DNA of 64,000 nt from Bdellovibrionota bacterium (lineage in GTDB: Bacteria; Bdellovibrionota_G; JALEGL01; DATDPG01): the NCBI GenBank assembly GCA_035292885.1, contig DATDPG010000019.1, forward strand, positions 59,570-123,569, written 5' to 3'. The position numbers were made by a program, and so were the translations under genes. A model generated the notes under the pieces. That model did no database searches. It was not told where the DNA came from and was given only the letters and a program-made list of their open reading frames with translations. This document shows, piece after piece, positions 16,302-39,551 of the stretch. Position 1 is the first letter of the stretch. Every line of letters starts with the position of its first letter.

Positions 16302-16406
16302 GAACCAAACGGCATCCGGTCAAAATAGTTTCCGTACGAGAACTGATACAAATCATGGTTCACAAGGAGGCGTTCTGTTCTCCTAATTCTAGTAACCGGA
16401 ATTCAT

Positions 16407-16910: not shown

Positions 16911-16939
16911 GGCGGAGCGGACAGGAGACCTGAAACGAC

Positions 16940-19444: not shown

Positions 19445-20131
19445 ATGCCGCGATGGGGAATGGTGATCGATCTCGATAAGTGCACCGGCTGCGGCGCTTG
19501 CGTGGCCGGGTGCAAAGTGGAGAACAATGTCGCCGTCGGCTCGGCTGAACTCGGGCGGGAAAACCGAGCCATGTTCTGGATGGAGATGGTGAAGTTCGTG
19601 GAAGGGGAACACTATCCCGATGTGCGGATTCGGTACGTGCCGCGGCCTTGCTTTCAATGCGACAACCCACCGTGCACCCGTGTTTGTCCCGTCCGCGCGA
19701 CGTATCTCTCCGATGAGGGGATTGTGGCCCAAATCTACGCCCGCTGCATCGGATGTCGCTATTGCCAAGCGGCCTGCCCGTACACCGTCAAGTCTTTCAA
19801 CTGGTACGAGCCGAAGTGGAGCCAAGAACGGTCCAGTTGCTTGAATCCCGATGTGTCTCAGCGGCCGAAAGGGGTCGTGGAGAAGTGCACGTTTTGTCAC
19901 CACCGCCTGCAGGTGGCGCGGGAGAAAGCACGGGCCGAAAACCGATCTCTCCGCGAGGAGGATTACAAAGTGGCTTGCCAGGACGCCTGTCCGGCCGGAG
20001 CGATATTGTTCGGAGACTTGGAAGACAAGTCGACGCAGGTGTTCAAGCTCAGCAAGAGTCCGCGTGCCCAACGTCTCATGGAAGATCTCGGAACCGAGCC
20101 GAAGGTCTTCTACCTTTCGAGGGGAGGATGA
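19445..20131 (+). CDS. 4x[4Fe-4S] ferredoxin-type electron-transfer subunit (PsrB/NrfC/ActB2-like)
   Basis: Four Cys clusters (CTGCGACVAGC, CFQCDNPPC, CIGCRYCQAAC, CTFCHHR). The start abuts the MopB stop. Confidence 0.85.
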   Translation: MPRWGMVIDLDKCTGCGACVAGCKVENNVAVGSAELGRENRAMFWMEMVKFVEGEHYPDVRIRYVPRPCFQCDNPPCTRVCPVRATYLSDEGIVAQIYARCIGCRYCQAACPYTVKSFNWYEPKWSQERSSCLNPDVSQRPKGVVEKCTFCHHRLQVAREKARAENRSLREEDYKVACQDACPAGAILFGDLEDKSTQVFKLSKSPRAQRLMEDLGTEPKVFYLSRGG

Positions 20132-20132
20132 C

Positions 20133-21485
20133 ATGAAAGCCCGGCCGGAAGATCTGGGAGCGGAGGAACATCTCCTCAAACCGCTTCATCGGGTTTCCCC
20201 GAAGCTTCTCGTTCTTTGCGGCCTGCTTTTCCTGGCGGTTCTCAACATGCTCTTCGCCTTCGCGGGACAGGTTTGGTTCGGTCTCGGTGTCACCGGAATG
20301 AATCAGCCGGTGACGTGGGGTTTCTATATCGTCAACTTCGTCTTCTTCATCGGGATCAGCCACGCGGGGACGCTCATTTCCGCGATCCTGCGCTTGTCAC
20401 AGGCTGAATGGAGGCGGCCCATCACGCGAATGGCGGAAGTCATTACGGCCCTCGTTCTTGCGATCGGCGGTATCCAGCCGATCATCGATCTGGGAAGGCC
20501 GGACCGGGTCTTCAATATCTTTACGTCGGGCAGACTCCAGTCGCCGCTTTTGTGGGATGTGACGTCGATATCGGCCTATTTTATGGCCAGCACGGTCTTT
20601 CTCTATTTGCCCCTCATTCCGGATATCGCGCTTCTTCGGGACCGGGGAGGAAAGCTTCGCTGGGCCTACGACCTGATGTCCTGGGGATATCGCGGGACGG
20701 AACGCCAGAAGCACGTGCTGGAACGAGCCATGACGATCATGATGATCATTGTCATCCCGATCGCCGTATCCGTTCATACGGTGATCTCCTACATCTTCGC
20801 CATGACGATTCAGCCGGGGTGGCACAGCACGATCTTCGGCCCTTATTTCGTGTGCGGGGCGATCTTTTCCGGAATCGCGGCGCTCTTGATCGTCATGATC
20901 GCCTTTCGGAAGGCCTATCACCTGGAGGACTACTTAAAACCCATTCACTTCTCCTACCTGGGACAACTTCTTTTGATCATGTCGCTCCTCTGGTTTTACT
21001 TCACGTTTTCGGAATACCTTACGGCCTTCTTCGGGAACGAACCGCAGGAACTTCGTGTCGTGAATTATAAATTTACGGGGGCATACTGGCCGCTCTTCTG
21101 GGGGATGATCGTCGCGAACTTCGTCATTCCGGTGGCTCTTTTGAGTTCACCCAAAATCCGAACCATCCCGAACATCTTGGTGGCGTCGATCTGCGTGGTG
21201 ATCGGAATGTGGCTGGAGCGATTAAACATCGTGGTTCCGTCGCTCGCGAATCCGAGGCTCCCATACGCGACGGGCTTCTATATTCCCTCGTACACCGAAT
21301 GGTCCCTTTTCTTAGGGATGGCGGCGCTTTTCGTCTTGATGTTCATCGGCTTCTCCAAGTTTTTCCCGCTCATCTCGGTTTGGGAAATTCAGGAAGGGAG
21401 GACGCACGGCGTGAAAGAGGTGACCGAAAGGGTCGAGAGCTACCTTCCTCCGATGGCGCTCGAAGGAAAGGGGCGGGATTCATGA
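20133..21485 (+). CDS. NrfD/PsrC-family polytopic membrane quinol-interacting subunit (ActC-like)
   Basis: 450 aa with about 10 TM helices. NrfD-like. RBS gaggggagg. Start placed 2 nt after the FeS-subunit stop; ORF 19851..21485 is an upstream extension of this gene. Confidence 0.85.
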   Translation: MKARPEDLGAEEHLLKPLHRVSPKLLVLCGLLFLAVLNMLFAFAGQVWFGLGVTGMNQPVTWGFYIVNFVFFIGISHAGTLISAILRLSQAEWRRPITRMAEVITALVLAIGGIQPIIDLGRPDRVFNIFTSGRLQSPLLWDVTSISAYFMASTVFLYLPLIPDIALLRDRGGKLRWAYDLMSWGYRGTERQKHVLERAMTIMMIIVIPIAVSVHTVISYIFAMTIQPGWHSTIFGPYFVCGAIFSGIAALLIVMIAFRKAYHLEDYLKPIHFSYLGQLLLIMSLLWFYFTFSEYLTAFFGNEPQELRVVNYKFTGAYWPLFWGMIVANFVIPVALLSSPKIRTIPNILVASICVVIGMWLERLNIVVPSLANPRLPYATGFYIPSYTEWSLFLGMAALFVLMFIGFSKFFPLISVWEIQEGRTHGVKEVTERVESYLPPMALEGKGRDS

Positions 21486-21715
21486 CGAAAAAGAAAATTC
21501 TTTTTTTCAGCCAGCTCGTCTCTCTGGCGGGGATCTGGGTCTTCGTCTTGGGAATCAGCGTCTGGATTCTCCATCTCATCCGGATGGCCAACAAGCTTCA
21601 TGACGCTCCGACGGCGTCCGTATCGATCAGCCTGGTGGCCATTCCCGTCTTTCTCACAGGCGCGAGCGTGCTGACATATGTCTTCGTCGGCATACAGAGA
21701 GGTGGAAAGGAATAA
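21482..21715 (+). CDS. small two-TM membrane protein, translationally coupled (ActD-like position)
   Basis: ATGA overlap with the NrfD stop. 77 aa with two hydrophobic helices. Confidence 0.45.
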   Translation: MTKKKILFFSQLVSLAGIWVFVLGISVWILHLIRMANKLHDAPTASVSISLVAIPVFLTGASVLTYVFVGIQRGGKE

Positions 21716-21719
21716 TGCG

Positions 21720-22931
21720 ATGAACGGGCGGATTCCGATGGCCGTGTTCACCGTCGTTTTGGGCGCATCCTTCATGCTCGGCGGCTTCGCTCGGAGTGAG
21801 GAGGAGAATTGGCTTCCATCGGAGCCGCTCAAGGGGCGAGTTGTCTTCGAGCAAAAGCACTGCCCGCAGTGCCATTCGATCGGAGGCGCGAAAGGCGGGG
21901 TCGGTCCCGATTTAGCCGAAGCGGGAACGTATTTTCACGGGAGCTTTCTCCAGCTCTCATCCATTTTATGGAACCACATTCCGGACATGCTGGTGGAATA
22001 CAAAACGCGAAATCTTTCTTGGCCGAGTTTCTCCGAGGACGAGGTCGGCTATCTGATTTCCTATCTGTACTATCTGCGATACTTGGGAAGCCCGGGCGAT
22101 GTCGCCAACGGCCAGCGCCTCCTCCAGACGAAAGGGTGCGTCGCCTGTCATGCCGTCGGGAAACAAAAAAAGGCGGGGGACGCGCCTCCGCTGGATCAGC
22201 TCAAGAAATATGTTTCGCCGCTCTACCTGGTGCAGGCGGTTTGGAATCACGGGCCCCGGATGCAGCGGATGATCGAACAAAAGGGAATCAAGCGGCCGAC
22301 ATTCGACGGTCAGGAAATCAGCGACATGAGCGCGTACATCCGCAACGTAAGCCGCTGGAACACCGAGGAGAAAGTGTATCTCTCCCCGGGCGATCCGAAG
22401 AACGGAGAACGGGTGTTTGAAAGCAAGGGGTGCGTCAAGTGTCACTCCGAACAAAGGGGGAGGAAGCGGGCGCCGTCGCTGGAGAAGTCGAGCCTGAATG
22501 AGAGCGCGGCGGGCATCGCGGCGCTGATGTGGAACCATGCGGATGTCATGATGAGTTCGATGAAAGAGGAGAAAATCAGCTGGCCGACGTTCGAAGGGCG
22601 CGAGATGCCCGATCTGGTCGCATACCTGTTCTTTCTGGATTTTCTGGAACCGCCGGGAAACGCCGCAAAGGGCAAGGAGCTATTCGGCCAGAAACAATGT
22701 TCCTACTGTCATTCGATCCACGGAGCCGGGGGTACCATCGGACCCGATCTCGCGGTCGTCGGTTCTCTTTCCTCCACCCGGTCGATCCTCCGGATGATGG
22801 TGAATCACGCGGAAAACATGTCGGAAGCCGTCCTGGGCGCCGGGAAAGCCTGGCCGGTTCTGGGCGGTGACGAGATGAATAACATCTTCGCGTACTTAAA
22901 AAGCGTCGAACGGAAAGAAAAAAAGAAATAG
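21720..22931 (+). CDS. tetraheme cytochrome c built of four class-I cytochrome c domains
   Basis: Signal peptide. Four CxxCH motifs, each followed by GPDL and a distal MWNH motif (candidate Met ligand). RBS ggaaagg. Paralog of the gene at 37130..38365. Confidence 0.75.
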   Translation: MNGRIPMAVFTVVLGASFMLGGFARSEEENWLPSEPLKGRVVFEQKHCPQCHSIGGAKGGVGPDLAEAGTYFHGSFLQLSSILWNHIPDMLVEYKTRNLSWPSFSEDEVGYLISYLYYLRYLGSPGDVANGQRLLQTKGCVACHAVGKQKKAGDAPPLDQLKKYVSPLYLVQAVWNHGPRMQRMIEQKGIKRPTFDGQEISDMSAYIRNVSRWNTEEKVYLSPGDPKNGERVFESKGCVKCHSEQRGRKRAPSLEKSSLNESAAGIAALMWNHADVMMSSMKEEKISWPTFEGREMPDLVAYLFFLDFLEPPGNAAKGKELFGQKQCSYCHSIHGAGGTIGPDLAVVGSLSSTRSILRMMVNHAENMSEAVLGAGKAWPVLGGDEMNNIFAYLKSVERKEKKK

Positions 22932-25497: not shown

Positions 25498-26397
25498 GTG
25501 TTGATCGTTTCGATACTGACTGGGGTAGCGATATCGGCTGCCGCCCCCGCTTCCACCAAGGTCGCGTTTTTGGCCGATCATGGGTACAGCGAAACAACCG
25601 ATGCCGTTTTCCGGATGGTTCGAAACGAAGGCGCTTCCCTGCTCGTGATTCAAGGCGATCTCGACTACAAGAGCGACGCCCAACAATGGGAGGAAATGAT
25701 CAACAGGACGTTGGGAGAGAATTTTCCGGTCCTCGTGGCTCCCGGCGACGAGGAATTTAAGCGCTGGAAAGACTACCAAACTGTCTTCCGCCGCCGCCTC
25801 GAACGAGCCAAAGAAGTTTCATGCGAGGGTGACCCTGGAATCCGTTCCACGTGCACGTTCCGCAATCTTCGGGTTCTGTTGCTCGGGGTGGGGTTGACCG
25901 GCGACGACTATTCTTCCTACATCCGCAATCCGGCTATCCATGGGAAGGAACCGTGGAAAATCTGCTCCTGGCATCTTAACCAGCGCCTCCTTCAGATCGA
26001 GAAGAAACCGGACGAAGCCGGATGGGACGCCTATGAAGCCTGCCGTGAGATCGGCGCGATCGTGGCAAACGGCCACGCGCACGTCTATGCCCGGACACAT
26101 CTATTGTCGAAAATGAATCCGCCGACCATCCTCTCGAAGGAACCGGTTCTTACGATCGCGCCCGGTCAGACGTTTCTCTTCATCAGCGGCATCGGCGGAA
26201 AATCAATCCGAAAGCAAAAGGACACCCTGGCCGCCAACCCCTGGTGGGCTACTGTTTATACCCGAAAACAACATGCCGATTTCGGTGCGCTCTTTTGTTC
26301 GTTCGGCGCCCAAGAGAAAAAGCCCAAAGGAGACTGCTACTTCAAAGACATTCAAGGCCGAGTCGTAGACCGTTTCGAGCTTCTCAGTCTTTTGTAG
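25498..26397 (+). CDS. calcineurin-like metallophosphoesterase
   Basis: GDLDY, GDEE and ANGHAHVY motifs. GTG start inferred. Confidence 0.5.
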   Translation: MLIVSILTGVAISAAAPASTKVAFLADHGYSETTDAVFRMVRNEGASLLVIQGDLDYKSDAQQWEEMINRTLGENFPVLVAPGDEEFKRWKDYQTVFRRRLERAKEVSCEGDPGIRSTCTFRNLRVLLLGVGLTGDDYSSYIRNPAIHGKEPWKICSWHLNQRLLQIEKKPDEAGWDAYEACREIGAIVANGHAHVYARTHLLSKMNPPTILSKEPVLTIAPGQTFLFISGIGGKSIRKQKDTLAANPWWATVYTRKQHADFGALFCSFGAQEKKPKGDCYFKDIQGRVVDRFELLSLL

Positions 26398-26427: not shown

Positions 26428-28017
26428 GTGAAGCGTTCGGCCCAGGTCGTTCAACCGGTACCGCCTTCTGGGGAGGTGGGGCGGGAGTATCCGGGCTTAT
26501 ACGAAGAACTCGACCAGCTGCGACGAAAGCGGTTGACGCTGGTGGCTACCGTCGGCGCGTTGATGTGCCTCACGATTCAAGTGATCAACTTCTGGACCCA
26601 AGCCGGCCCGCGGATCTATCCGCGGATGGAACCGGAGATCCTCGATCGGGCCACACTGCTCTTTCACGCCGCTTCGTTTCTTTCAGCCGCTTTCCTGTTT
26701 CGAATTCGTTCGCTTCAGACACAGACGGTTCTCGCTCTCGATCTCCTCTTGTTTGGGTTGAACATTCTCGCTCGATCCCTTGCGACGATCTGCATCGTTG
26801 AAACGGGCGATCATTTTCCGGGAATCGAGGGTATTTCCCTTGCGGTGATTTTGCATGGGGTATTCGTTCCGACCGGTATCACGATACCGATTGTGCTCGG
26901 CGCCTTGGCCACGATCTCCTTCCCGTTGGCCCAAATCGCGGGTTTACACTGGTTCGACTCGATCGCCGCACATTGGCAACAAGTAAGTGGGGCGGAGCCG
27001 TTTGCGTTCTTGCTTACTTTGAACACGCTTACGATCGCCTTTTTCGCCTTTCTCGGCGTTCTGGCCAACCGCGTTTTTTACGGCCTCGCCCGGGACGCCT
27101 ACCGCGCCAAACAGCTTGGGAATTATCTCATTGAAGGGGAACTCGGTTCGGGCGGGATGGGAAAAATTTTGATCGGACGGCATCGTCTGATGCGCCGGCC
27201 GACGGCGATCAAAGTTTTGCGGGCCGAGTTTTTGGGCGGGCCGGAAGCCTTGGCTCGTTTCGAGCGCGAAGTCGAACTGGCGTCAAAGCTTACGCATCCC
27301 AACACAATCGCCATATATGATTTCGGACGTTCGGCCGACGGAACCTTTTACTACGCCATGGAAATGCTCAAGGGGTTAAACCTCCAGGAACTCGTGGATC
27401 AATACGGTCCTCTTCCCTCGCCGCGGGCCGTGCATATCGTAAAGCAAATTTGCGGATCGCTGGCGGAAGCGCATTCGATGGGTGTCGTCCATCGCGACAT
27501 TAAACCGAGCAATATTTTTCTCACGCAGCGCGGAGGTCTGGACGACTTCGTCAAAGTCATCGATTTCGGTTTGGCCAAACAGGTCGCCACGCCCGACGTG
27601 CCGGGTGAGGGCCTTACGGAGGCCGGGCGTCTGTTCGGCACGCCGCATTTTATGGCGCCGGAGACGGCATACGGAGCCGATCGAGCGAGTCCTCAGTCCG
27701 ATATCTACAGCCTGGGCGCGGTCGCTTATTGGCTTGTAACCGGAAAGCGGCTCTTCGACGGCACTCCGGCGGAAATATTGGCCGCGCATGTGAAGACGGT
27801 ACCGAAGCCGCCTTCAAAAGTTTCAGAGGTTCAGATTCCGGCCTCACTCGAACAGACGATACTTACCTGCCTAAAGAAAAAACCGGAGGAGCGACACAAA
27901 TCGGCGATGGAAATCTTCACCGCGCTGGACGGCATCGAAGGGACATCACGTTGGTCAAACGCACAAGCGAGAGAGTGGTGGGAGATCCACCATCCGGGTC
28001 TGTTCACGCATCTTTGA
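26428..28017 (+). CDS. Ser/Thr protein kinase with N-terminal polytopic membrane domain
   Basis: About 230 aa of N-terminal TM helices, then a canonical Hanks kinase (GSGGMGKI, AIKVL, HRDIKPSN, DFGLAK, GTPHFMAPE). GTG start. Confidence 0.8.
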   Translation: MKRSAQVVQPVPPSGEVGREYPGLYEELDQLRRKRLTLVATVGALMCLTIQVINFWTQAGPRIYPRMEPEILDRATLLFHAASFLSAAFLFRIRSLQTQTVLALDLLLFGLNILARSLATICIVETGDHFPGIEGISLAVILHGVFVPTGITIPIVLGALATISFPLAQIAGLHWFDSIAAHWQQVSGAEPFAFLLTLNTLTIAFFAFLGVLANRVFYGLARDAYRAKQLGNYLIEGELGSGGMGKILIGRHRLMRRPTAIKVLRAEFLGGPEALARFEREVELASKLTHPNTIAIYDFGRSADGTFYYAMEMLKGLNLQELVDQYGPLPSPRAVHIVKQICGSLAEAHSMGVVHRDIKPSNIFLTQRGGLDDFVKVIDFGLAKQVATPDVPGEGLTEAGRLFGTPHFMAPETAYGADRASPQSDIYSLGAVAYWLVTGKRLFDGTPAEILAAHVKTVPKPPSKVSEVQIPASLEQTILTCLKKKPEERHKSAMEIFTALDGIEGTSRWSNAQAREWWEIHHPGLFTHL

Positions 28018-30256
28018 GTAATTCTTTGAGAGCAGATCGTTCTTCGTCCGAGGCAAAGAGCGTGGCTCCGGTCTTTAGAAGGTCGGAAACGACATGGTCG
28101 ATCGGTCGAACGGTTTTTCGCTTTTGTTCATCGCTCAGATCGCCGATAAACGGCCACAGTCCCTTTTTCAGATCGGCGGGAAGGACCTGCTCCAGATATT
28201 CGAGGGCGAAGCTCCTGAGCTTTTCGTTCTCGAGAAGAATTCCATAATAGGCCGCCCGAACCGCCTCGGGCTCCAGCACCAGCGCCAACATACGGAAGGT
28301 ATGCTCGATCCCGAGCTCCCCTCGGCGTCCCACCCGTTCGGACACGAGATCATCCTCTTCCGGCTCGGTTTCATCCAAAAGCCGGTGCAGTTCCCAGACC
28401 GGCTTTCCACGGCTGACTTCCCCTTTCAAGGCTTCCCACACACCCGTCTTCCAATTTGTCTCCGACACCGGAAGGCCATGCTTTCGGCGGTTGGCTAAAG
28501 CGATCGCCGAACGATATCGAACTTCGAACCGTGAGTCTCCCAGAGCCACGACAAGCGCCTCATCCGCTTTGGCGATCGGAACTTTCGCCAGGACACGGGG
28601 GATTCTCCTGCGGATGACGAAATCGTTGTTTTCGTCCCGGAGAATCCCCGCCAACACGTGGAATCCGCCAGCCCCGACTCGAACCAAAGCGTGCGTGACA
28701 AGATCCTGAAGATCTTTTTGTGCCAGGAGACGGACGAGAGTCTCCGCATGGCTTTCATTCCAGTCCGTTTTCTCCATCAGCGCTTTTCGAACCTCGGTGG
28801 GATTTTTGGATTGAATCCGTTCCAATGTCGTGCTCTTCGTTGGCGTGACCGGCGCTTGAGAGACTTTGGCTGCACCCGAGGGTGGAAGGAGACCTCGGGC
28901 CTCCAAGTCGGCGGCTATACCCAGCCGGCTGAAGGTCGCCGTCAAAAGCCCTCTCCCCTCAAATCGGGCATCCGCCAGCATTCGTTCCGGTTCCGCCTTA
29001 TCCCGCAGCTGTTGAACGAGCGTCTCAAAATACTTCCTTCCGATTTGCCGGCTCAGCCCCAAGAAACCGAGGGCTGAGACTCCCACAAGAATCGAAAGGT
29101 ATTTGGAGGGAAGGCCTCCCAAGGTGATGCATAGAAAAATGAGTCCCGATCCGGCCCCTTCGGCAGCCGCGTCGACCAAAGAATCAATGAAGGTCTTCGT
29201 TTTTCGCCGGACCTGCGTGGGAAGAGGGATGTACACAACTTCGACGGCCGACCGAAAAATGGATTTCCGGATCGAATTGTCCGCGCCGCGCGCCAACGTG
29301 GCCGCTATTAATCCGGGCAAGAGAAAAAGCCCGGTGGAGCCGGCCAGCAAAACCATCGGCAGAACTGCGAACGTGGTCCCGACACCCGTCCTCGCCAAAA
29401 GCGGCGCTGTAACAACGACCTGAAGAAGAAGAGAAATAAGGCCGGTCCAACCGTAGAAGCTCCCGAAAAACCCGGCCAGCTGTTCCCTCGACTGCAAGGA
29501 AGCTCGAACTTGTTCCTTGAATTGATAGTCGAGGAGCGTGCTCGCTAACGTTGCCGCGAAAACGATTGAAGCCAACGTCCGCAGATGCTCGTTCCGCCAT
29601 ACGAGATGCAAGCTCTCACGCGTACTGGTCCGTTCGCCCTCCTTTTCCTTAGGGTCCATGTCCTTTCGCGCCGGAAGCAGGACTTGCAGAAGCAAAAAGA
29701 GGCCGACAAGCCCAATTAACGCCGGGATCATTTGAACGAGGCCGATCTGTTTGATCAGCGGCTTGATGGACGTACCCAGAGTGAGGGCGCCGATGGTCCC
29801 TCCGGCGCTGATTAACGCAAACAAACGCTTGGCGCGGCGAATCGGAAAAAATTCCGCCGTGACCACCCAGAAGCCGGAGGTCAAGACGAATGCGCCCAGC
29901 GCCGTCCAGAGGTAAAAGACAACCACGGCGGAAGCATTTTGCGTCGCAACCGGCCAAAGTGCGAGAAGGCCCATCGCGAATAGAAACACCGCGTAACGAA
30001 GGACACGTTGAGCTCCGTACCGGGCCATAAGTTTGGAAAACGTCCCAATCGTTGGCAACGCCAGAACCACGACGGCGGTCGTGATATACGGGAGCGTCTT
30101 GACGTCGAATGTGCCAAGGTAGAGGGCCTCACGAAGGGAGCGCCCGAGAATCATCATTCCGACGACGAAAAACGCGCCGAGAAAACAGAGAGCAACCGTA
30201 GGGAACTCGCCCGGCCTTATGTCAAGCCAACTTGTGAGCCGCTGGGCGGGTTTCAT
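28004..30256 (-). CDS. TLC/MFS-like 12-TM transporter fused to C-terminal HEAT-repeat domain
   Basis: N-terminal 430 aa polytopic domain (GRSLREALYLGTFDVKTLPYITTAVVV resembles ATP:ADP antiporter-family openings). C-terminal 300 aa of repeated alpha-helical HEAT-like units (ALVRVGAGG...LAKVP...ALVVALGDSRFEVRYRSAIALAN). Confidence 0.55.
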   Translation of the reverse strand: MKPAQRLTSWLDIRPGEFPTVALCFLGAFFVVGMMILGRSLREALYLGTFDVKTLPYITTAVVVLALPTIGTFSKLMARYGAQRVLRYAVFLFAMGLLALWPVATQNASAVVVFYLWTALGAFVLTSGFWVVTAEFFPIRRAKRLFALISAGGTIGALTLGTSIKPLIKQIGLVQMIPALIGLVGLFLLLQVLLPARKDMDPKEKEGERTSTRESLHLVWRNEHLRTLASIVFAATLASTLLDYQFKEQVRASLQSREQLAGFFGSFYGWTGLISLLLQVVVTAPLLARTGVGTTFAVLPMVLLAGSTGLFLLPGLIAATLARGADNSIRKSIFRSAVEVVYIPLPTQVRRKTKTFIDSLVDAAAEGAGSGLIFLCITLGGLPSKYLSILVGVSALGFLGLSRQIGRKYFETLVQQLRDKAEPERMLADARFEGRGLLTATFSRLGIAADLEARGLLPPSGAAKVSQAPVTPTKSTTLERIQSKNPTEVRKALMEKTDWNESHAETLVRLLAQKDLQDLVTHALVRVGAGGFHVLAGILRDENNDFVIRRRIPRVLAKVPIAKADEALVVALGDSRFEVRYRSAIALANRRKHGLPVSETNWKTGVWEALKGEVSRGKPVWELHRLLDETEPEEDDLVSERVGRRGELGIEHTFRMLALVLEPEAVRAAYYGILLENEKLRSFALEYLEQVLPADLKKGLWPFIGDLSDEQKRKTVRPIDHVVSDLLKTGATLFASDEERSALKELLKDA

Positions 30257-30269
30257 TCAGAGGTGTTTA

Positions 30270-31850
30270 CTACGCCGCCTCGGCGAAGTCGACCGGCTGG
30301 CGATGAAGCGACCACCACTCCCTCGCCTGATTCTGCGTCCAGAGTCTGTTGGGTTCACAGGTTTCAAGCGCACCGAGGAACTCGTCCATATTTTGAAAGC
30401 GATCTTCGGGCTTCTTGGCCAGACACCGAAGAACGAACCGGTCCAACGCTTCGGGAATGGCGATCTCGGAGAGTTCGGAAGGTGGTTTAGGGTCGGTCTT
30501 GGCGTGATCGACGAGAAGCTCGACGTTGGACGACGCGGCAAAAAGCGGCTGTCCCGTGAGCAACCAGAAGGTCACCGCTCCCAGATTATAGATATCGGCA
30601 CGATGATCCACTTTCGATGAGCCGTACACCATCTCCGGCGCGATGTACCGAGGGGTCCCGAAAATCACTCCGGTCTTCGTCAAGTGGGAGGCTCCGTCAA
30701 TTTTCATCTCTTTGGCCAGACCGAAATCCAGAACCTTTACGAAATCGTAAATGCCACCCCGTTCCGTCAGAAAAATATTCGCCGGCTTGATATCGCGGTG
30801 AATGATGTCCTTGTTGTGAGCTTCACCGAGCGAGCCGGCGACCTGACGGAGAATATGAATGGTACGAGCGGCCGGCAGGGGACCGTATTTCTCGACGATC
30901 TCCTGAAGGTTTAGGCCGTCCAGGAACTCCATCACGTAAAAAAATTTGTTGTCGTCCGTCCGTCCGAAATCATAAATTGAAATCGTATTGGGATGACTGA
31001 GTGTCGAGGCCAGTTGAACCTCCCGTTCGAAACGTTGGATCGCCGCTCCGGAATCGTCGTCGCCCGGCACAAGCATCTTTAATGCGGTCGGCCGGTGCAT
31101 CATGGCGTGATGGGCGATATAGACCTTTCCCATGCCGCCGCTCCCGATCTCTTTTTCCAGGATGTAATTGCCGACTTGCTTCGCTTGATGGAGGTCCTTT
31201 CGCATGTTGTAAAGCGTCTTTGTGACCAGAGCCGAGACAAGACCATATATCGCGATTTGAATCGCTTGCGCCGGTGTGGCTCCGACCATCGCGTCGTATC
31301 CTCCACGCGTCTCCCAAAAGGTTTGGACGGAAGGGAACCAGAGATAGGACAAGAATCGCATGACGACGAAACCGAGTGTTGCCCAAACGCCCATGCTGAT
31401 CTGGCAACTCAAGAGACAGGGAACAAATGCCGCGTGTACGAAAAGTATCAATGAAATCGGAAAAAGTGGAGCCTCGGCCGGAAATGCGATGGCCCCAACC
31501 CACGTAGCCAGCAAAAGGTTGAAATGGAATACAACGTTATCGATCGTGCGGAGGGTCCCCGCTCGCCAATCCTTCAAGGAACGTAGAAAAAGCAGTGCTC
31601 CGGCAAAAGAAGCGGCATGAATCCATTTGGAAATCAGAACCCAATTCGGCGCGATCACACTTTCCCATTGAACCGGGCCCCACAAGTATTTTGTAATAAC
31701 CCAGCCGATCACACTGAGCGTCAGGCCCAAATAGGAGACGAGAATCAGGCGCTGATGAAGAAGCCCGCACCTCTCCTTCTGAAACGAGTCGCTCGTCTGG
31801 GCGGGCGACGGTTCCTTTTTCTTACAGCAAAGGGGCATCGTGATCGGCAT
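30270..31850 (-). CDS. Ser/Thr protein kinase with N-terminal polytopic membrane domain (paralog of 26428..28017)
   Basis: Same architecture and extensive identity with the other kinase (GSGGMGKVY, HRDIKPANIFL, DFGLAKE, GTPRYIAPE, and an AQAREWW C-terminus shared by both). Confidence 0.8.
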   Translation of the reverse strand: MPITMPLCCKKKEPSPAQTSDSFQKERCGLLHQRLILVSYLGLTLSVIGWVITKYLWGPVQWESVIAPNWVLISKWIHAASFAGALLFLRSLKDWRAGTLRTIDNVVFHFNLLLATWVGAIAFPAEAPLFPISLILFVHAAFVPCLLSCQISMGVWATLGFVVMRFLSYLWFPSVQTFWETRGGYDAMVGATPAQAIQIAIYGLVSALVTKTLYNMRKDLHQAKQVGNYILEKEIGSGGMGKVYIAHHAMMHRPTALKMLVPGDDDSGAAIQRFEREVQLASTLSHPNTISIYDFGRTDDNKFFYVMEFLDGLNLQEIVEKYGPLPAARTIHILRQVAGSLGEAHNKDIIHRDIKPANIFLTERGGIYDFVKVLDFGLAKEMKIDGASHLTKTGVIFGTPRYIAPEMVYGSSKVDHRADIYNLGAVTFWLLTGQPLFAASSNVELLVDHAKTDPKPPSELSEIAIPEALDRFVLRCLAKKPEDRFQNMDEFLGALETCEPNRLWTQNQAREWWSLHRQPVDFAEAA

Positions 31851-31927: not shown

Positions 31928-33238
31928 TTGATTCAGTCCGGAGGAAGGTCTAAAAATTACAAATTGATTCCAAGGGCTTACACGGTTCTTTTGGGGATCC
32001 TCTGCACGATGACGCCTGCGGTCGCGGAAACCGTACCCGCGCCGATCTCCGGAACAGAACCGGAAACCCCGGTCGTCATCCAGGAAAAGGAACCTCGCTG
32101 GCCCAAAATCCTCGCTTTTCCCTTGGATCTTCCACCGACGGTTGTTCGCGGCGTCGGTCTCCCTTTCTCCATGTTCGCGAATTGGGCCGAGGAGACGAAC
32201 CTGCCCCTTCGGGCGCTGGAGTTTTTTTCCAACGATGACCGAACGGCGTATTGGTACCCGACCTTTCGAATCGGCGGTAAGGGAGGCGCATTTTTCGGCG
32301 CCGGAGGAAAGCACCGAGACCTTTTCGGGAGGGGATACAGCGGTTCGGCGCTCGCGAATGTTTCGTTAGGCCTCGATCTCGATGCCAAACTTTCCTTCAC
32401 GCATCCTCATCTCGGAAACAGCGATGTCGCCGGAGGTTTGGCCGCAACGTATTACCGGCGGCAACTGGAGGAATACTACGGCATCGGCAACGATTCCCGG
32501 GCGGAAGATTCCCGGAAATTCGAAGGGCGTCTTTTATATTTGTCCGCGCCGCTTGGCGGACAATGGGGTCGTCATTTCAATTGGGACGCGGCGGCGAAGT
32601 ACGCGGTTCTTGAGCAAGATGAGGCTTTCCCTGGAGATTTAAGCGGCAATTTTCCGTCCAACGAACTCTTCGGATTGGGCGAGTCGATCTCGGGGGGAGA
32701 CTTCGGCTTTGGTCTTCGTTGGGACGACCGGGATTTTAAAGGAGCGCCCGGGAAAGGGACGGTGATCAAGGGTTCGTTCAACGGCTTTGTTGGAGAGAAC
32801 GATTTTCGTTTTATTCGGACCAAAGCGGCGTTCAGCCGTTTTCTGACGCTCCGAAAACGAGGGCGAACGCTCGGTTTCGGCGGACGGTTTGAGTGGGCGG
32901 CTACGCCCGGGGGCGGCGAAATTCCGTTCACTTTCGTTCCATACTTGGGCGGAAGCGGAAATTTTCGCGCCTACGACGATTTTCGGTTCCGAGACAACGC
33001 GCTGTTTATGCTGATTAGCGAGTACCGTTATCCGCTCTGGCGGTACGCCGACATGGCGCTCTTTTTTGAAAGCGGCCGTGTCGCGGGCAGCCCGAGAGAT
33101 CTAAGTTTCCACGATCTGCACTACTCGTACGGCGCTGAAATTCGTTTTCGGACGCTCGACATCGCCTTTTTTCAAATTCTCATCGCTCACGGGGAGGACG
33201 GGTTCCGCGCGACGATGTCTCTGAACCAAAGTCTATGA
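31928..33238 (+). CDS. Omp85/BamA-superfamily-like outer-membrane beta-barrel protein
   Basis: Signal peptide. C-terminal LGGSGNFRAYDDFRFRDNALFMLISEYRYPL...GAEIRFRT resembles Bac_surface_Ag barrel strands. Confidence 0.45.
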   Translation: MIQSGGRSKNYKLIPRAYTVLLGILCTMTPAVAETVPAPISGTEPETPVVIQEKEPRWPKILAFPLDLPPTVVRGVGLPFSMFANWAEETNLPLRALEFFSNDDRTAYWYPTFRIGGKGGAFFGAGGKHRDLFGRGYSGSALANVSLGLDLDAKLSFTHPHLGNSDVAGGLAATYYRRQLEEYYGIGNDSRAEDSRKFEGRLLYLSAPLGGQWGRHFNWDAAAKYAVLEQDEAFPGDLSGNFPSNELFGLGESISGGDFGFGLRWDDRDFKGAPGKGTVIKGSFNGFVGENDFRFIRTKAAFSRFLTLRKRGRTLGFGGRFEWAATPGGGEIPFTFVPYLGGSGNFRAYDDFRFRDNALFMLISEYRYPLWRYADMALFFESGRVAGSPRDLSFHDLHYSYGAEIRFRTLDIAFFQILIAHGEDGFRATMSLNQSL

Positions 33239-34989
33239 ACGCACCCTTTTTTCGCACGGTCCTGATCGTTTTATCCGTCACGGGTTGCACGCATCATTCG
33301 CCTGCGCCGATTCTCACGCAGCACCAAATCGCCGACGATCGGAAGCCGATCGCCCCGGTCAAGGAGCGAACCGACTTGAAATATGGCGAAGTCGCCGATC
33401 GAAACACGTTCGAGCGACTTGCACGGGTCGCGGACGTTCGAACCTACCTAACGGGCGTAGGAAATAGCCTGGGCGGTGACTGGGGCCCCGAAGCCCTCAA
33501 CGCGAACTCGTTCGACGAAGTCGCCGACTCCAGCTGGTTTACGAATCGGAATGCACGCCAGGAGGTCGCTCTCGATATTCTTCGAGACGGCCCGCCGCCG
33601 GCGATTCACCTGTCGACCGTAGGGCCACTCGCCATTATCAGCGGCAAGGGATCGGGGGATATTCCGGGATTCATCGTGGCGGACCCAAACAACCAGCGGT
33701 TCCTTCTGAAGTTCGATTCGAGCGAATATTGCGGCCTATCGACGTCGACCGACGTCATCTCCAGCCGTTTCTTGTATGCCGCCGGTTACAATACTCGGGA
33801 AACACGGATCGAGCATATCGATCCGGCTCGATTCGTTCTCGATCCGAAAGCAAAAACCAAAGACCGCTTCGGGAAGAAGGTTCCGATGGATCAGGAGGCG
33901 TTTGCTCGCCTGATCGCCCGGCTTCCCGGCTGCCGGAAAGACGGAAAAGTTCGAACGATGGCCAGTCGCTTTTTGGAAGGGAAACCTGCCGGCCCGTTCT
34001 CCTATCAGGGTCGACGCGCCGACGACCCCAATGACAGGCTTCCCCATCAACACCGGCGGGAGTTGCGCGGTCTCGTGGTTCTGGCGTCATGGATCAACAA
34101 CACCGACTTTCAGGATTACAACACGCTCGACATGTTCAAGGAGGCGGGCGATGGGAATGGGCATCTCGTCCATTACTTGCTCGACTTCGGCGGATCCTTC
34201 GGCCACGGGACGCTCCACCCGAAACAAAATTACCAGGGCCATATTCATTTTATTGATTTCGAGGAAGCAGGATTAAATCTTCTGACGTTCGGACTTCGCG
34301 ATCCCGTCTGGGCGCAAGATTTCCCAATTCGGTATCGGTCGATCGGAAACTTTCGGGCCGACAACTTCGACCCATCGGAGTGGCGGCCGAGCAATCCCCA
34401 TCCGGCCCAGCAACAAATGACCGAACGAGACGGATTCTGGGGGGCGAAGCTGGTGGCCTCTTTTTCCGATGAACAGATCCGCACCGCCGTCCGGGCCGCC
34501 GAGCTTCCCGAAGATGGGGCCGAAGAGGAGATGGTTCGAATTCTAAAAAGTCGGAGGGACACGATCGCGAAGTACTGGTTTTCAAAGGTCGGAGCTCTCG
34601 ATCGTTTTGTCATCGAAGGGGACGTCCCCACCGTCCGATTTGTAGACTGGAACCAGGCGGGGCTCTGGCGGCCGACGCAGGCTGTGTCGTATCGCTGGCA
34701 TCTTCGAGGGAGGAAAATCTATCGTAGCGGTACGACACTCAAACCTCGGATCGAATTATTCGCAACGAAGGAGGCATTCGAAACTTGGCAGAAACAGATC
34801 CGTAAGAGCGCCGATCGTTACCTGCGACTGAACATCACGCCGATGATCGAAGATCCCGTCAGCCTGCCGTACGAGAAAGTTGCAACAACCGCTCGCGCGG
34901 CGGGCCACTCGACCGAGGCGAGCATTTTCCTCCATGATGACGGTCGATTCTATTGGGTTGGAACCGATCGAAAGCGATCGTCGAACTAA
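33235..34989 (+). CDS. large lipoprotein of unknown function, translationally coupled to the Omp85-like gene
   Basis: ATGA overlap. Signal ending VTGC. 584 aa. Contains WINNTDFQDYN and LLDFGGSFG segments. Confidence 0.45.
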   Translation: MNAPFFRTVLIVLSVTGCTHHSPAPILTQHQIADDRKPIAPVKERTDLKYGEVADRNTFERLARVADVRTYLTGVGNSLGGDWGPEALNANSFDEVADSSWFTNRNARQEVALDILRDGPPPAIHLSTVGPLAIISGKGSGDIPGFIVADPNNQRFLLKFDSSEYCGLSTSTDVISSRFLYAAGYNTRETRIEHIDPARFVLDPKAKTKDRFGKKVPMDQEAFARLIARLPGCRKDGKVRTMASRFLEGKPAGPFSYQGRRADDPNDRLPHQHRRELRGLVVLASWINNTDFQDYNTLDMFKEAGDGNGHLVHYLLDFGGSFGHGTLHPKQNYQGHIHFIDFEEAGLNLLTFGLRDPVWAQDFPIRYRSIGNFRADNFDPSEWRPSNPHPAQQQMTERDGFWGAKLVASFSDEQIRTAVRAAELPEDGAEEEMVRILKSRRDTIAKYWFSKVGALDRFVIEGDVPTVRFVDWNQAGLWRPTQAVSYRWHLRGRKIYRSGTTLKPRIELFATKEAFETWQKQIRKSADRYLRLNITPMIEDPVSLPYEKVATTARAAGHSTEASIFLHDDGRFYWVGTDRKRSSN

Positions 34990-35075: not shown

Positions 35076-35861
35076 TTGTTCCGCCATTCCAATACGGGTC
35101 GTATTCTGCTGTTTTTGACAGTCCTGATCTCCATCACTTCGGCGCAGGCGGCGGAAGATTTTTCACCGGGATCCTTTGAACTGCCGCCCCATCCTCGTTT
35201 TACGGCATTCAGACAGAGCCTATTGGCCGAACAAGCAGCCCTCATCGCCGGAACAACCTTCGCCGCATCGTTTCTGGCGTATCGCCTGGTGGATACACCG
35301 CTCGGGGTCGACGGAAGCGCCGGCGCTTTAGGACCCGCCAGTCAATGGATCTCGGATATCGGCAACTATCTTCCGTTTGCGCTGCCGGTCGGGTTTTTTG
35401 CCGCGGGCCAGTTTTTCGAAAAGGGAAGTCTGGAGAGGTCCGAGGCATTTAAGACGGCCCAGGAGTTGGCCGAAGCGATCGCCCTAACCTACGGAACGAC
35501 GATAGGACTCAAGTACGCCGTGGGCCGAACGAGACCGAACGGTCAGGATGATGCATCGTTCCCCTCCGGTCACGCGTCGATGGCCTTTGCTGCGGCCGGC
35601 GTCCTCGCGCAACGATTTCCTTGGTACGTTGGCGTCCCCTCCGTGGCGTTCGCCAGCGCAGTTGGGTTCACCCGGTTGGACCTGGGCAAACACTACCTCT
35701 CCGATGTCGCTGTCGGAGCAGGATTGGGTCTCTTCTTCGCCACCACGGTTCACCTCTACCATTCCAATTTGTCTTTTATGGCCCATAAGCCATCGCAGCA
35801 GACGGTTGTCCCGATGGTGGCAAAAAACATTTTAGGTCTCAGCTTCACGGGGACCTTTTAG
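35076..35861 (+). CDS. PAP2-superfamily phosphatase, secreted/membrane
   Basis: KYAVGRTRP, PSGH and HYLSDV motifs (the KxxxxxxRP / PSGH / SRxxxxxHxxxD tripartite PAP2 signature). Confidence 0.75.
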   Translation: MFRHSNTGRILLFLTVLISITSAQAAEDFSPGSFELPPHPRFTAFRQSLLAEQAALIAGTTFAASFLAYRLVDTPLGVDGSAGALGPASQWISDIGNYLPFALPVGFFAAGQFFEKGSLERSEAFKTAQELAEAIALTYGTTIGLKYAVGRTRPNGQDDASFPSGHASMAFAAAGVLAQRFPWYVGVPSVAFASAVGFTRLDLGKHYLSDVAVGAGLGLFFATTVHLYHSNLSFMAHKPSQQTVVPMVAKNILGLSFTGTF

Positions 35862-35955: not shown

Positions 35956-37113
35956 TTGGTATCCACAAAAAAAATCATCTTTTTCTTATTCGCTTTGATA
36001 ACCTTTGCACCCCCCTCCCAGGCGGAGGGGCCGGTCCTGGGTATCGGCGATGTCTTAAATCTTCTTACCGAGCTGCGTAGGTTCCATCAGAATTGCATTC
36101 CGGACGATGGCAGAGAGGTTTCCGAGGATACCCACGCGTTTTTAAATGAATGGAACAACCTCTCCACTCTGCCGTTCAACGCAATCGACTACCCGGCTCT
36201 GGCCGCAAAGATGGGGCCGAGTCTCTTACGAATGGGGAAGCTTCTCCACAGATACACCTATGGCGGGTCCTATGACGAACTGAATCCCGGTCATTCACGG
36301 GAGTTCGGCAACGGTACAAGGAGTCGCAATTTCAGGGGACGCCGCAATCATGAACTCAGAGATCCGGAGAATTGCGGCCCGCCGGTCGTCGACAGAATTC
36401 TCGCTGAGAAACAATGGGACAGAGTCCCCGGTTTCGACCCCAGCGTTTGGCGGCAACGTAATTCATTGGTAACGCAAGCCAGATCGCTCCTTCAACCGAG
36501 TCTAATCGTAACGGCGACGACAGCAGCGGCTGTCGCTGCGCTCTCTAGTCTCGCTTTACGTCAACCATCCGCTCTCCTCTCTCAAGCGAGTTCACCAATA
36601 ATTATGCCCAGGCTAACGGACCAGATCGTTCCAGACGCCGAGATACGACGTGACCCACCAGAAGTGTTCCTCGCTCTTTGCAGCGCTATCACATCGAATG
36701 GCCGGTGCGAACCGGAGCTCGATATAAACTGGCAAAAGCTTTACGTGTTGTATGCCTCGCGGGCGATCAACGACTTTTCCGAAGTGGTGACGAAGGAAAT
36801 CGAATTCCGGGAGAAAATCCTACAAGGTTACCGACCGACTCTCGCCCAACTGCTGGAGATGTACGCGCGCCGAGATGTTCTGGGTCAGATCAAGATCTGC
36901 GACGGAAACATCGAGAGCTGTTTGCCTCCTGAAAAGGGTTTTCATTATCAAAAGGCCGCACAGATTCTTCAATGTCTTGATAACGATGCGGAAGGCTGTC
37001 GTGAACTTCCGGAAGGCTTCGGGAAGCTCAGCCGGGGCTACGTTGATAAAGCGATCAAACGACAGTTCGGAATAAGACCTTTTCCATCTCGCCTTCCTCC
37101 GAAGTGGAGCTAA
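35956..37113 (+). CDS. hypothetical secreted protein
   Basis: TTG start in an AT-rich patch. Signal peptide. No recognisable domain. Confidence 0.4.
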   Translation: MVSTKKIIFFLFALITFAPPSQAEGPVLGIGDVLNLLTELRRFHQNCIPDDGREVSEDTHAFLNEWNNLSTLPFNAIDYPALAAKMGPSLLRMGKLLHRYTYGGSYDELNPGHSREFGNGTRSRNFRGRRNHELRDPENCGPPVVDRILAEKQWDRVPGFDPSVWRQRNSLVTQARSLLQPSLIVTATTAAAVAALSSLALRQPSALLSQASSPIIMPRLTDQIVPDAEIRRDPPEVFLALCSAITSNGRCEPELDINWQKLYVLYASRAINDFSEVVTKEIEFREKILQGYRPTLAQLLEMYARRDVLGQIKICDGNIESCLPPEKGFHYQKAAQILQCLDNDAEGCRELPEGFGKLSRGYVDKAIKRQFGIRPFPSRLPPKWS

Positions 37114-37129: not shown

Positions 37130-38365
37130 CTACGGTAAGTGCTTCGCATTCGGACTCGCCGGAGCCAGGCTCGTCAGAAACGCATAGAGATCCGCCATCT
37201 CCCGGCCCGTCAGTTTGGGCCACTTCAAGTGTTGCTCGGTATGCTTCTCTTGCATCTCGGTGGAGTGGTTCCACATCGCCGCGACCATGCCCATGGGGGA
37301 GTTCAATTTGCTGATGGCGGCGAAATCTTTCGCCGCGTTTCGTCCCTTGCCGTTTAAGGAGTGGCACGTCAGGCATTCTCGGTCCCTAACGAGATTCTCC
37401 CCTGTGGCGGGGCTCCCCGGTGCGTCCTCCAGTTTCATGCTGTAGAGATACGCGATGACGTGCGCCATCTCCCCCTCCTTGAAATCCGGGAACGTGAGTT
37501 TCTTTTCTTTCATCATCTCCCACATGGCGGGGCCGTGATTCCACATCTTGGCCGCGATCTCGGTCACGGGATAGTTGAAATCGACCTCAGCGAAATCGGG
37601 CGCCGTGGTTGGTGGTTTGGCACGGAACGAATGGCAATGCATGCACCCTTTTTCGGTCAAGAGTTCCTTCCCCTTTGAGGGATCGCCGAGGTCATAGTCG
37701 CTGGCCGGGAAGACGGTCGGGGCCATATACGAACGGATTCCGGCGGCCAGGGCGTCCATCTCGTCCTCTTCGATGACGGGCCGATCGATCTTGTACTTCT
37801 CAAAAAGCGCCAGCATTTTCGGGCCATGGTTCCACATCGCTTCCGCCAGTCGGATGGGGGAGATGTATTCCTTTTTCGCGCTGATGTCGGGAGCGATTCG
37901 GGCGCCTTCCCCTCCAAATTGATGACAAGAGAAGCATCCCTTTTCCTTCAGCACCTTTCTTCCCATCGATTCCCTCACCGGTTCCGCCATGTACCGGATG
38001 AAAGAGAGATAGCGAACCAGCTCGGACATCTCCTTCGGCGTGAACTTCGGAAAGGCATACCCTTTGGTCTCGATCTTCTTCGCCATTCTCGGAAGGTGAT
38101 TCCACATGACGGAAGAAAGCTCGAGGTATGTACCGTAAAACTTGCGGTTGCCCAGGTCGGGACCGCCGCGGCCCCCCCTCCCGTACACGGAATGGCACTG
38201 CGCGCATCCCTTCTGATGGAAGACTTCCCGACCCGGCCACGGTGAGGCCGAAGTGGCTGCTTCCTGCGCCCGAAGGGCGAAAATGGAGCCGGATGACATC
38301 AGGAGATACGCGAGAATGAATTGCAGGAGGCGGATGCAGTTTCTCCGGGTAGTGGACATAGTCAC
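37130..38365 (-). CDS. tetraheme cytochrome c of four class-I domains (paralog of 21720..22931)
   Basis: Signal peptide. Four CxxCH motifs, each with a GPD and a downstream MWNH motif. Confidence 0.75.
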   Translation of the reverse strand: MTMSTTRRNCIRLLQFILAYLLMSSGSIFALRAQEAATSASPWPGREVFHQKGCAQCHSVYGRGGRGGPDLGNRKFYGTYLELSSVMWNHLPRMAKKIETKGYAFPKFTPKEMSELVRYLSFIRYMAEPVRESMGRKVLKEKGCFSCHQFGGEGARIAPDISAKKEYISPIRLAEAMWNHGPKMLALFEKYKIDRPVIEEDEMDALAAGIRSYMAPTVFPASDYDLGDPSKGKELLTEKGCMHCHSFRAKPPTTAPDFAEVDFNYPVTEIAAKMWNHGPAMWEMMKEKKLTFPDFKEGEMAHVIAYLYSMKLEDAPGSPATGENLVRDRECLTCHSLNGKGRNAAKDFAAISKLNSPMGMVAAMWNHSTEMQEKHTEQHLKWPKLTGREMADLYAFLTSLAPASPNAKHLP

Positions 38366-38516
38366 CTCGTCGTTTCTTGTGAGATTAAAGCCCTGCTCCG
38401 TTTATCTCATGCATGACAAGAGGGTGAACGGCTGTATATGATTTAGATCAGCTGCCGGCGGACAACCGTCTGGAGAGCAATCGACGTTGCGCTCGTGGGG
38501 TCGGCCACGAGACAAG

Positions 38517-38768
38517 CTACTTTGCGGTGCCTTTCTTCCGAAAGATTCGAATAGGAGTTCCCAGCTTGTATAGCTCGCCCACTTTGCAGATGTCTTCGCA
38601 TTGGACGGAGATGCTCGCGCCCACGACTTTTTCGACGTCCGGGATTTCCTCCCATTCCTCCTCCAGGCCGCTGATTTCGGTCGCGACGCGGTCGAGTGTT
38701 GCGTCCGGAACGAGCTTTCCGAAGTGTTTCGTCAAAACCGTTCGGATTTTATCGGCGTCCCGGGGCAT
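38517..38768 (-). CDS. small hypothetical protein
   Basis: 83-aa ORF between the cytochrome and vapC genes. No motif. Confidence 0.2.
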   Translation of the reverse strand: MPRDADKIRTVLTKHFGKLVPDATLDRVATEISGLEEEWEEIPDVEKVVGASISVQCEDICKVGELYKLGTPIRIFRKKGTAK

Positions 38769-38828
38769 AGAATCTCTCCTTCGCTTTCCATTCTCACCGT
38801 TGTTTGCGTATTTTAAATATGACCAGGA

Positions 38829-39257
38829 TCATTCTTTGAAGGGATTGAGGATTCGCAAGTCCTCTACGTGAAAACCATGCTGCAGGTCTTCGGTATAGAG
38901 CGCGTCACAATTCGAGGCCAGTGCCTGAGCCACAATGGCCGCATCCCAGAAAGACCAGCGATAACGATGCCGAAGGCGACACGCGTGGACGAAGATTTCC
39001 TGAGTTGTCACGACCGGGTCCCATGAAAAGTAACTACGACAGACATCGACGGCATCCTCGAAGGAAAGAGGTTTCGGGATCTTGGTCGCGACCGTGACGA
39101 GAAATTCCTGCAACACCTGCAGGCTCGTCGCAGCCGATTGGTTTTCCCAATGGGCCTTTACGAGATCCGAAGATCGATTTGATTTACCGGAATCACTTCG
39201 ATCATACGCATAGACGAGAATATTCGTGTCAAAGAAAGCGCGCCTATTTTCGGACAT
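38829..39257 (-). CDS. vapC: PIN-domain toxin (VapC)
   Basis: FFDTNILVY N-terminus and conserved acidic residues of the PIN fold. 142 aa. Confidence 0.7.
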   Translation of the reverse strand: MSENRRAFFDTNILVYAYDRSDSGKSNRSSDLVKAHWENQSAATSLQVLQEFLVTVATKIPKPLSFEDAVDVCRSYFSWDPVVTTQEIFVHACRLRHRYRWSFWDAAIVAQALASNCDALYTEDLQHGFHVEDLRILNPFKE

Positions 39258-39489: not shown

Positions 39490-39551
39490 TACACTATTAT
39501 CGTGTAACACGATTATCGTGTCAATGCCTCGACCGGGTGGTGCCAAGACAG

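Follow-up and report, generated by a model that had tools for sequence, protein, structure and literature searches.

Two six-helix membrane Ser/Thr kinases flank an NTT-HEAT transporter within a conserved bacterial envelope gene cluster

In a 64,000-nucleotide stretch of contig DATDPG010000019.1 (positions 59,570 to 123,569 of the forward strand, assembly GCA_035292885.1, assigned to a Bdellovibrionota bacterium), termed here the window, two paralogous genes for membrane-embedded Hanks-type Ser/Thr kinases, K1 and K2, flank the gene for T, a transporter of the NTT/TLC family that ends in HEAT-like repeats (Table 1). Both kinases begin with six predicted membrane helices, and genes of their family adjoin T homologues in other genomes as well. 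The three open reading frames (ORFs) and their arrangement had been recognized in a first-pass annotation made from the sequence alone, and the ORF listing agrees with it: K2 closely precedes T on the same strand, with 13 nt between the K2 stop and the T start, and K1 converges on T, their 3' ends overlapping by 14 nt. That annotation also proposed a kinase-transporter module; the adjacency of the genes proved to be conserved, but the module was drawn too narrowly, with an Omp85-like barrel and a kinase-fold lipoprotein encoded just beyond its limits.

Table 1. Genes and domains of the locus, with positions in the window
Feature	Position	Strand	Details
Calcineurin-like metallophosphoesterase, possible accessory gene	25498-26397	+	299 aa; signal-peptide-like N-terminus; directly upstream of K1
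K1, Hanks Ser/Thr kinase with N-terminal six-helix membrane domain	26428-28017	+	529 aa; KTM hidden Markov model (HMM), 184 bits
K1 six-helix membrane domain, residues 1-232	26428-27123	+	Hydropathy, family alignment
K1 C-terminal tail, WSNAQAREWWEIH	27952-27990	+	
T, NTT/TLC-family transporter with C-terminal HEAT repeats (NTT-HEAT clade)	28004-30256	-	750 aa; Pfam TLC, MFS_1
T HEAT-like repeat domain, residues ~480-749	28007-28819	-	HEAT_2, profile matches
T membrane domain, residues ~1-410	29027-30256	-	About 11-12 hydrophobic helices
K2, Hanks Ser/Thr kinase with N-terminal six-helix membrane domain	30270-31850	-	526 aa; KTM HMM, 257 bits
K2 C-terminal tail, WTQNQAREWWSLH	30303-30341	-	
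K2 catalytic domain, residues 229-486	30393-31166	-	Pfam Pkinase, motifs
K2 six-helix membrane domain, residues 1-227	31170-31850	-	
OMP436, Omp85-like outer-membrane protein	31928-33238	+	Divergent from K2, 77-bp gap
LP584, exported lipoprotein, predicted atypical protein-kinase-like fold and C-terminal beta-sandwich	33235-34989	+	
PAP2-family phosphatase, recurring neighbour	35076-35861	+	Pfam PAP2, E 8e-14

Both kinases match Pfam Pkinase well above its cut-off of 31.7 bits (K1 residues 235-491, 147.3 bits, E 7e-43; K2 residues 229-486, 158.3 bits, E 3e-46), and the catalytic motifs GSGGMG, (A/L)(I/L)K, FEREV, HRDIKP(S/A)N, DFGLAK and APE are complete in K1, K2 and 13 relatives. From these intact motifs, the two proteins look active and are predicted to be catalytically competent Hanks-type Ser/Thr kinases. 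They align end to end with 42% identity over 496 aa (E 2e-139), and their membrane domains alone are ~22% identical. Full-length relatives (45-52% identity, ~95% coverage) are frequent in metagenomes, and those whose source is named come nearly all from Gemmatimonadota. Because a rough neighbour-joining tree places K1, K2, and the T-proximal and T-distal kinases of Gemmatimonadota-type loci in separate clades, the paired kinases appear to be stable, distinct paralogues and not recent duplicates. The family also shares a C-terminal tail motif, W-x5-A-x2-W-W-x-[LI]-H, in which W504, A509, W512, W513 and H516 are invariant in 18 sequences; the first-pass annotation was right that the tail is conserved, but the string that it gave for both kinases, AQAREWW, is that of K1 only, K2 reading NQAREWW. 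Elsewhere in the window (6490-8175, minus strand), a 561-aa protein combines a Hanks kinase with a PilZ domain, which binds c-di-GMP, at its C-terminus; the related contigs L083 and L084 also have a Pkinase+PilZ gene (564 aa), at a distance of ~9 kb from T.

The first ~225 aa of K1 and K2 have no match in Pfam or NCBIfam. Hydropathy and an AlphaFold2 (AF2) model built from 24 sequences both indicate six membrane helices over this region (model residues 16-56, 68-91, 97-122, 129-142, 147-171 and 185-226; predicted local distance difference test, pLDDT, 90.7; predicted template-modelling score, pTM, 0.84). In the model, the helices are long, and helix six continues into the kinase. The topology, with the membrane domain first and a canonical Hanks kinase last, is unusual, as the first-pass annotation had stated. 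Searched against 1.84 billion representative proteins, a profile of the membrane domain (KTM) returned 102 matches and, fragments aside, almost all are 480-590 aa long, the length expected of a fusion between six helices and a kinase; the domain is thus nearly confined to these kinases. A profile scan of metagenomes with kinase residues 1-297 gave mostly distant kinases among the matches listed. Among the conserved positions are R34, P144 (within an HAAFxP motif), Q150 and W179. Because of these conserved positions, the near-restriction to this kinase family and the confident six-helix fold, we reject the view of the domain as a generic anchor.

In its predicted fold, the bundle resembles the membrane domains of adenylyl cyclases and of the diguanylate cyclase ImcA, as judged by one comparison method. 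Foldseek ranks ImcA first among structures in the PDB (E 0.15, which is not significant), and sequence identity to the cyclase membrane domains is 5-9%, i.e., no detectable similarity. Since the top rank lacks significance, we treat the likeness as a resemblance of fold and claim no homology. The bundle might instead serve solely as a device for anchoring and dimerization that brings the kinase to the membrane beside T and transmits no signal, with regulation coming from elsewhere, e.g., from autophosphorylation or cytoplasmic cues. The very short extracytoplasmic loops of the model would fit such a role, as would the fact that no ligand site is identifiable from the sequence, and the six-helix domains of cyclases were themselves held to be anchors for decades, according to PMC12414865. 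Nevertheless, we consider this role rather unlikely for K1 and K2: the conserved positions are invariant polar or special residues within the bundle, and the domain is still recognizable despite the divergence of the paralogues. Moreover, at locus L121, T is followed by a kinase of the same clade, complete with the WW tail, in which the six helices give way to a bona fide type of sensor, a Cache-like domain in the periplasm (dCache_1, E 6e-7, under the Pfam cut-off). Regulation by lipids or partners has also been reported for structural relatives of the domain: recent reports (PMC11606603 and PMC12505454) describe the six-helix domains of membrane adenylyl cyclases as lipid receptors, and ImcA requires its membrane domain both to be active and to interact with a membrane protein partner (PMC10904736). 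At another locus, an orphan six-helix kinase gene is convergent with a gene for an alkaline ceramidase (L170, 11624-13546; L171, 8316-10475), which may hint at a lipid link of the membrane domain.

The transporter exceeds the cut-off of the TLC model PF03219 (61.7 bits against 21) over residues 102-313 only, also matches MFS_1, and stays far under the cut-off of the NCBIfam model TIGR00769 for NTP/NDP exchange transporters (56.9 against 387.2 bits); by its sequence it is a distant NTT relative and not a canonical exchanger. A profile of its family (26 members) matches the solved NTT structures 9j3n_A (E 2e-21) and 9j3j_A (E 3e-18), and positions 497-635 of this profile match alphaRep/HEAT chains with E values down to 7.5e-19. 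HEAT_2 is sub-threshold for the T sequence alone, at E 0.013, and reaches significance in homologues of ~50% identity (E 8e-7 to 6e-5), full-length homologues being 47-53% identical. The earlier assignment of HEAT repeats to the C-terminus is thus supported at the level of the family, at which a single polypeptide combines an NTT domain with a following HEAT domain, but T alone falls short of it. By all appearances, T has the architecture of the NTT-HEAT fusion proteins, a single clade that is widespread in free-living bacteria and whose function is unknown (PMC5381601, Major, Embley & Williams 2017).

Synteny of such kinases with T in further genomes had been chosen beforehand as the test on which the proposed module could fail, and it was found in Gemmatimonadota genomes and several metagenome contigs: kinases of the family adjoin T in seven of the ten distinct loci examined, and these seven represent two phyla or more. 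The loci are few, and because some were located by way of T, this count is biased. As a control we used 80 loci (1.28 Mb) around other Hanks kinases, obtained from a genome scan that picked generic catalytic motifs, and none of them held a match to the membrane-domain profile or a real T. Starting from T homologues, we reached a 65-kb metagenome contig with the order kinase-kinase-T-OMP-LP-OMP-LP on a single strand (L081; OMP and LP denote the genes for the Omp85-like protein and the lipoprotein), a complete Gemmatimonadota genome with the order kinase-kinase-T-OMP-LP (L082), and the locus of the nearest relative of K2 (L083), where orthologues of K1 (55% identity) and K2 (52%) are divergent from T, after which comes a PAP2 gene (45% identical to that of the window). 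Searches from kinases led to kinase-T-OMP-LP (L169) and kinase-T (L089), and a search from the lipoprotein to the 59-kb contig of the closest relative, whose order Metallophos-kinase-T-OMP-LP is the layout of the window without K2. The gap between kinase and T is 25-125 nt in L081, L082 and L169, compared with the 13 nt of the window. Nineteen contigs, paired by their equal size, were common to the best 120 kinase matches and the best 120 T matches, many of them only 5-16 kb long, and a distant subfamily with six helices, kinase and tail also adjoins distant T homologues (L090, L104). Although Hanks kinases are numerous in these genomes, which would favour a chance encounter of unrelated genes, the recurrence of the pair across loci and phyla and in the distant subfamily, with nothing comparable in the controls, makes such an encounter exceedingly improbable, and we regard it as refuted.

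Two further observations concern these loci. At L089 (2196-4503), the T homologue is divided between two ORFs that overlap, reflecting a frameshift, a pseudogene or an assembly error. Genes for MscS-type mechanosensitive channels adjoin kinases of the clade at two loci that are unrelated to each other, both at L121 (11052-13541), where T is present, and at L168 (7098-8819), where it is not.

The position next to T can be filled by other regulators. In Nitrospira (L172) the order is Omp85-LP-TLC/HEAT-cNMP_binding, and in Zixibacteria (L173) it is PAP2-Omp85-LP-Metallophos-TLC-TLC/HEAT-cNMP_binding, in line with the published observation that a cNMP-binding domain often comes after NTT-HEAT proteins or forms part of the fusion (PMC5381601). 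Because a cNMP-binding protein or a Cache-like kinase thus holds the same slot elsewhere, the regulator beside T looks swappable among six-helix Hanks kinases, Cache-like kinases and cNMP-binding proteins, T being the constant element. The two TLC-family genes at L173 stand in tandem (10976-15292) and encode proteins of 437 aa without and 949 aa with HEAT repeats, and a response-regulator gene comes after the cNMP-binding gene; at L172, genes for a Mutator-type transposase and a group II intron reverse transcriptase (3242-6071) lie directly upstream of the cluster.

From this conserved adjacency we conclude that the kinases are very probably linked to T in function. That K1, K2 and T form a conserved functional module, in which the kinases are signal-input regulators acting on T, seems to us an evenly balanced proposition. 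In such a module, the six-helix bundle would hold each cytoplasmic kinase domain at the membrane; a signal within or on the membrane, from a lipid or from a membrane protein acting as partner (possibly T itself), would set the activity of the kinase; and kinase activity would in turn set that of T, in the simplest case because the kinase phosphorylates the cytoplasmic linker or the HEAT domain of T. For this last step, direct regulation of T by phosphorylation, the case is perhaps a shade short of even. As is the case for dimeric cyclases, K1 and K2 probably function together as a pair, and they might form a heterodimer.

Several observations weigh against the module. The link is facultative: three of the ten loci of family kinases, all reached from the kinases, hold orphans with no T in the fetched flanks (L088, L168 and L170), and T homologues occur without a kinase, both in a close homologue (L086) and in L172-L174. 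A conserved Ser/Thr-rich motif that follows the last helix of T, RDLLSATFTRLD, is also present in the kinase-less homologue at L086, nine kinases of other phyla, which lack both the six-helix domain and a neighbouring T, carry the tail motif, and no gene for a PP2C phosphatase or an FHA protein was found among the ORFs scanned around the cluster, which are a part of those in the window. Two candidate signatures of a kinase-T interaction had to be discarded on this account: RDLLSATFTRLD as a kinase-specific phosphosite, since a T without a kinase nearby retains it, and the WW tail as a signature of docking to T, since kinases without T nearby possess it. The tail instead marks a wider clade of kinases and is not T-specific.

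Alternatively, the kinases might belong to the cluster but target something other than T, such as another protein of the envelope or a transcription factor that governs the divergent OMP-LP operon. Equally, they might be responsive to what an OMP/LP/PAP2 pathway produces; in either case, T would be no more than a co-regulated neighbour. Hanks kinases often have several substrates, orphan members of the family adjoin unrelated membrane or lipid genes (the MscS-like channel at L168, the alkaline ceramidase at L170), and no kinase-specific phosphosite was found in T. However, the kinase-T pair recurs at L121 with neither OMP nor LP within 20 kb, no other gene is as close or as constant a neighbour of the kinases as T, and in other lineages the cNMP-binding regulator takes the same position relative to T, and we therefore judge a target other than T to be unlikely, if worth keeping in view. 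Regulation of T by K1 and K2 as signal-input kinases remains our preferred reading.

Beyond K2, the locus continues into genes for envelope proteins. OMP436 itself has no Pfam match; its homologues beside the lipoprotein in L169, L172 and L174 match PF01103 (Omp85), and jackhmmer links all of them. The start of LP584 overlaps the OMP436 stop by 4 nt, and the two genes appear to be translationally coupled. Neither a PDB sequence search nor Pfam gave anything usable for LP584, and its fold, which is CtkA-, Fam20C-, CotH- or HipA-like, was identified by fold comparison only; like that of the kinase membrane domain, the underlying structure is a prediction. The kinase-like fold carries a conserved Lys, a catalytic Asp/Asn loop and the metal-binding Asp of the DFG motif. 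The family of LP584 comprises >1,400 matches and has no Pfam model, HipA_2 being weakly matched in three of 40 members. All four look-ups that started from relatives of the lipoprotein revealed an Omp85-family gene immediately upstream and a TLC-family transporter gene one or two genes away, as in a 5.7-Mb genome with the order Omp85-LP-TLC (L174). Because T pairs with OMP and LP across phyla as the adjoining regulator varies, T is the inner-membrane hub of a conserved cross-phylum envelope cluster, whose other members are an Omp85-like barrel and a kinase-fold lipoprotein that is exported. In L081, the OMP-LP pair is tandemly duplicated downstream of T (12274-18552).

Phosphatase genes are often found near this cluster. 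Besides the PAP2 gene after T in L083, there is one ahead of the Omp85-LP pair in L173. The metallophosphoesterase of the window falls just under the cut-off of Pfam Metallophos (20.3 against 21.5 bits, E 8e-4), and on the contig of the closest relative, a gene for 299 aa with a similarly weak match occupies the corresponding place ahead of the kinase; a Metallophos gene is also present inside the L173 cluster, to whose product jackhmmer found no link from the metallophosphoesterase of the window. Directly after PAP2, a 385-aa ORF (35956-37113, plus strand) encodes a signal-peptide-like N-terminus and has neither a Pfam match nor a homologue in the related loci examined. A scan of the locus for promoters and terminators performed no better than on shuffled sequence. 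The cluster is flanked by respiratory genes (16940-22931 and 37130-45168), namely a molybdopterin oxidoreductase accompanied by an NrfD-like subunit, several multi-haem cytochromes of the c type and a cytochrome b561 fusion, a gene content that is unusual for a metagenome-assembled genome (MAG) labelled Bdellovibrionota.

NTTs are typically counter-exchangers, and T in a respiring free-living cell could therefore exchange ATP out for ADP in. We put forward, as a rather unlikely speculation, that T passes ATP from the cytoplasm through the inner membrane into the periplasm in return for ADP, opposite in direction to its relatives in parasites, and so fuels LP584, in parallel to the import of ATP into the secretory pathway that supplies Fam20C. 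LP584 and its Omp85-like partner would then act jointly on a substrate in the envelope, PAP2 or Metallophos enzymes would reverse or trim the product, and swappable regulators would gate T through its HEAT domain because exporting ATP is costly. To our knowledge, the bacterial periplasm is generally assumed to be without ATP.

The main alternative to ATP export is that T imports external nucleotides, which the Omp85-like barrel, the kinase-fold protein, PAP2 and the metallophosphoesterase would capture or trim in the periplasm, the kinases tuning uptake. Some periplasmic phosphoesterases and PAP2-type acid phosphatases do process nucleotides, the source of the window is a Bdellovibrionota MAG, i.e., from a phylum that includes predators, and all characterized NTTs import nucleotides (PMC5381601). 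Yet the cluster is found mainly in free-living phyla (Gemmatimonadota, Nitrospira and Zixibacteria), LP584 retains every catalytic residue of an active kinase and not merely a binding pocket, and the PAP2 protein of the window looks by its sequence like a membrane-embedded lipid phosphatase, such that scavenging, too, is in our estimation an improbable role, though not a far-fetched one.

Each part of the locus is of a known kind: Hanks kinase, NTT-HEAT protein, Omp85-like barrel and atypical kinase fold. In the literature searched, however, we found no description of the six-helix kinase family, of its resemblance to cyclase domains, of its linkage to NTT-HEAT proteins, or of a cluster that joins an outer-membrane protein, an exported kinase and an NTT-HEAT protein, and we allow a minority chance of the wider system being categorically new. 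The locus defines an unannotated family of bacterial kinases with a sensor-like module that resembles domains of adenylyl cyclases, whose receptor function is debated, and a version of this arrangement in bacterial kinases would offer a new and tractable model for signalling by six-helix bundles. It also provides two concrete handles on the role of the widespread NTT-HEAT fusions, which has been open since 2017: the swappable adjoining regulator marks T as a gated device, and the cross-phylum link to an exported kinase-fold protein and an Omp85-like barrel suggests that the transported nucleotide may be used outside the cytoplasm. This conserved neighbourhood thereby gives a testable idea of what T does in free-living bacteria and, if ATP export by T were true, the periplasm of these bacteria would have a supply line dedicated to ATP as well as a phosphorylation system.

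Among known systems, the closest to T are the NTT-HEAT fusions, with which it shares an N-terminal NTT/TLC domain, a C-terminal HEAT domain, free-living hosts and, in related loci, a cNMP-binding gene immediately downstream; in the window, by contrast, two membrane Hanks kinases fill the regulator slot. The paper that defined these fusions (PMC5381601) does not contain the word 'kinase' and does not describe the neighbourhood with an Omp85-like protein and an exported kinase, and our literature search found no later work on the function of NTT-HEAT proteins. The membrane domain of T is homologous to those of Npt1/Tlc from Chlamydia and Rickettsia and of plastid NTT1 (structures 9j3n and 9j3j), but T is distant from them, bears an additional HEAT domain and belongs to a free-living host. 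In its AF2 model, the K1/K2 family shares with AC5, AC9, Rv1625c/Cya of M. tuberculosis and ImcA the six helices, the short loops and a last helix that runs into a cytoplasmic helix ahead of the catalytic domain, differing in that its output is a Hanks kinase rather than a cyclase and in its 5-9% identity. With the receptor kinases PknB and PrkC, K1 and K2 have in common a canonical Hanks catalytic domain (their best NCBIfam similarity is to the kinase domain of PknB), whereas their order is reversed and they lack PASTA or any other extracellular domain. Finally, LP584 differs from secreted or extracytoplasmic atypical kinases (H. pylori CtkA, Fam20C and CotH) and from the HipA / PI4K-II fold in being a diderm lipoprotein or signal-peptide protein with an Omp85-like partner and an extra C-terminal beta-sandwich.

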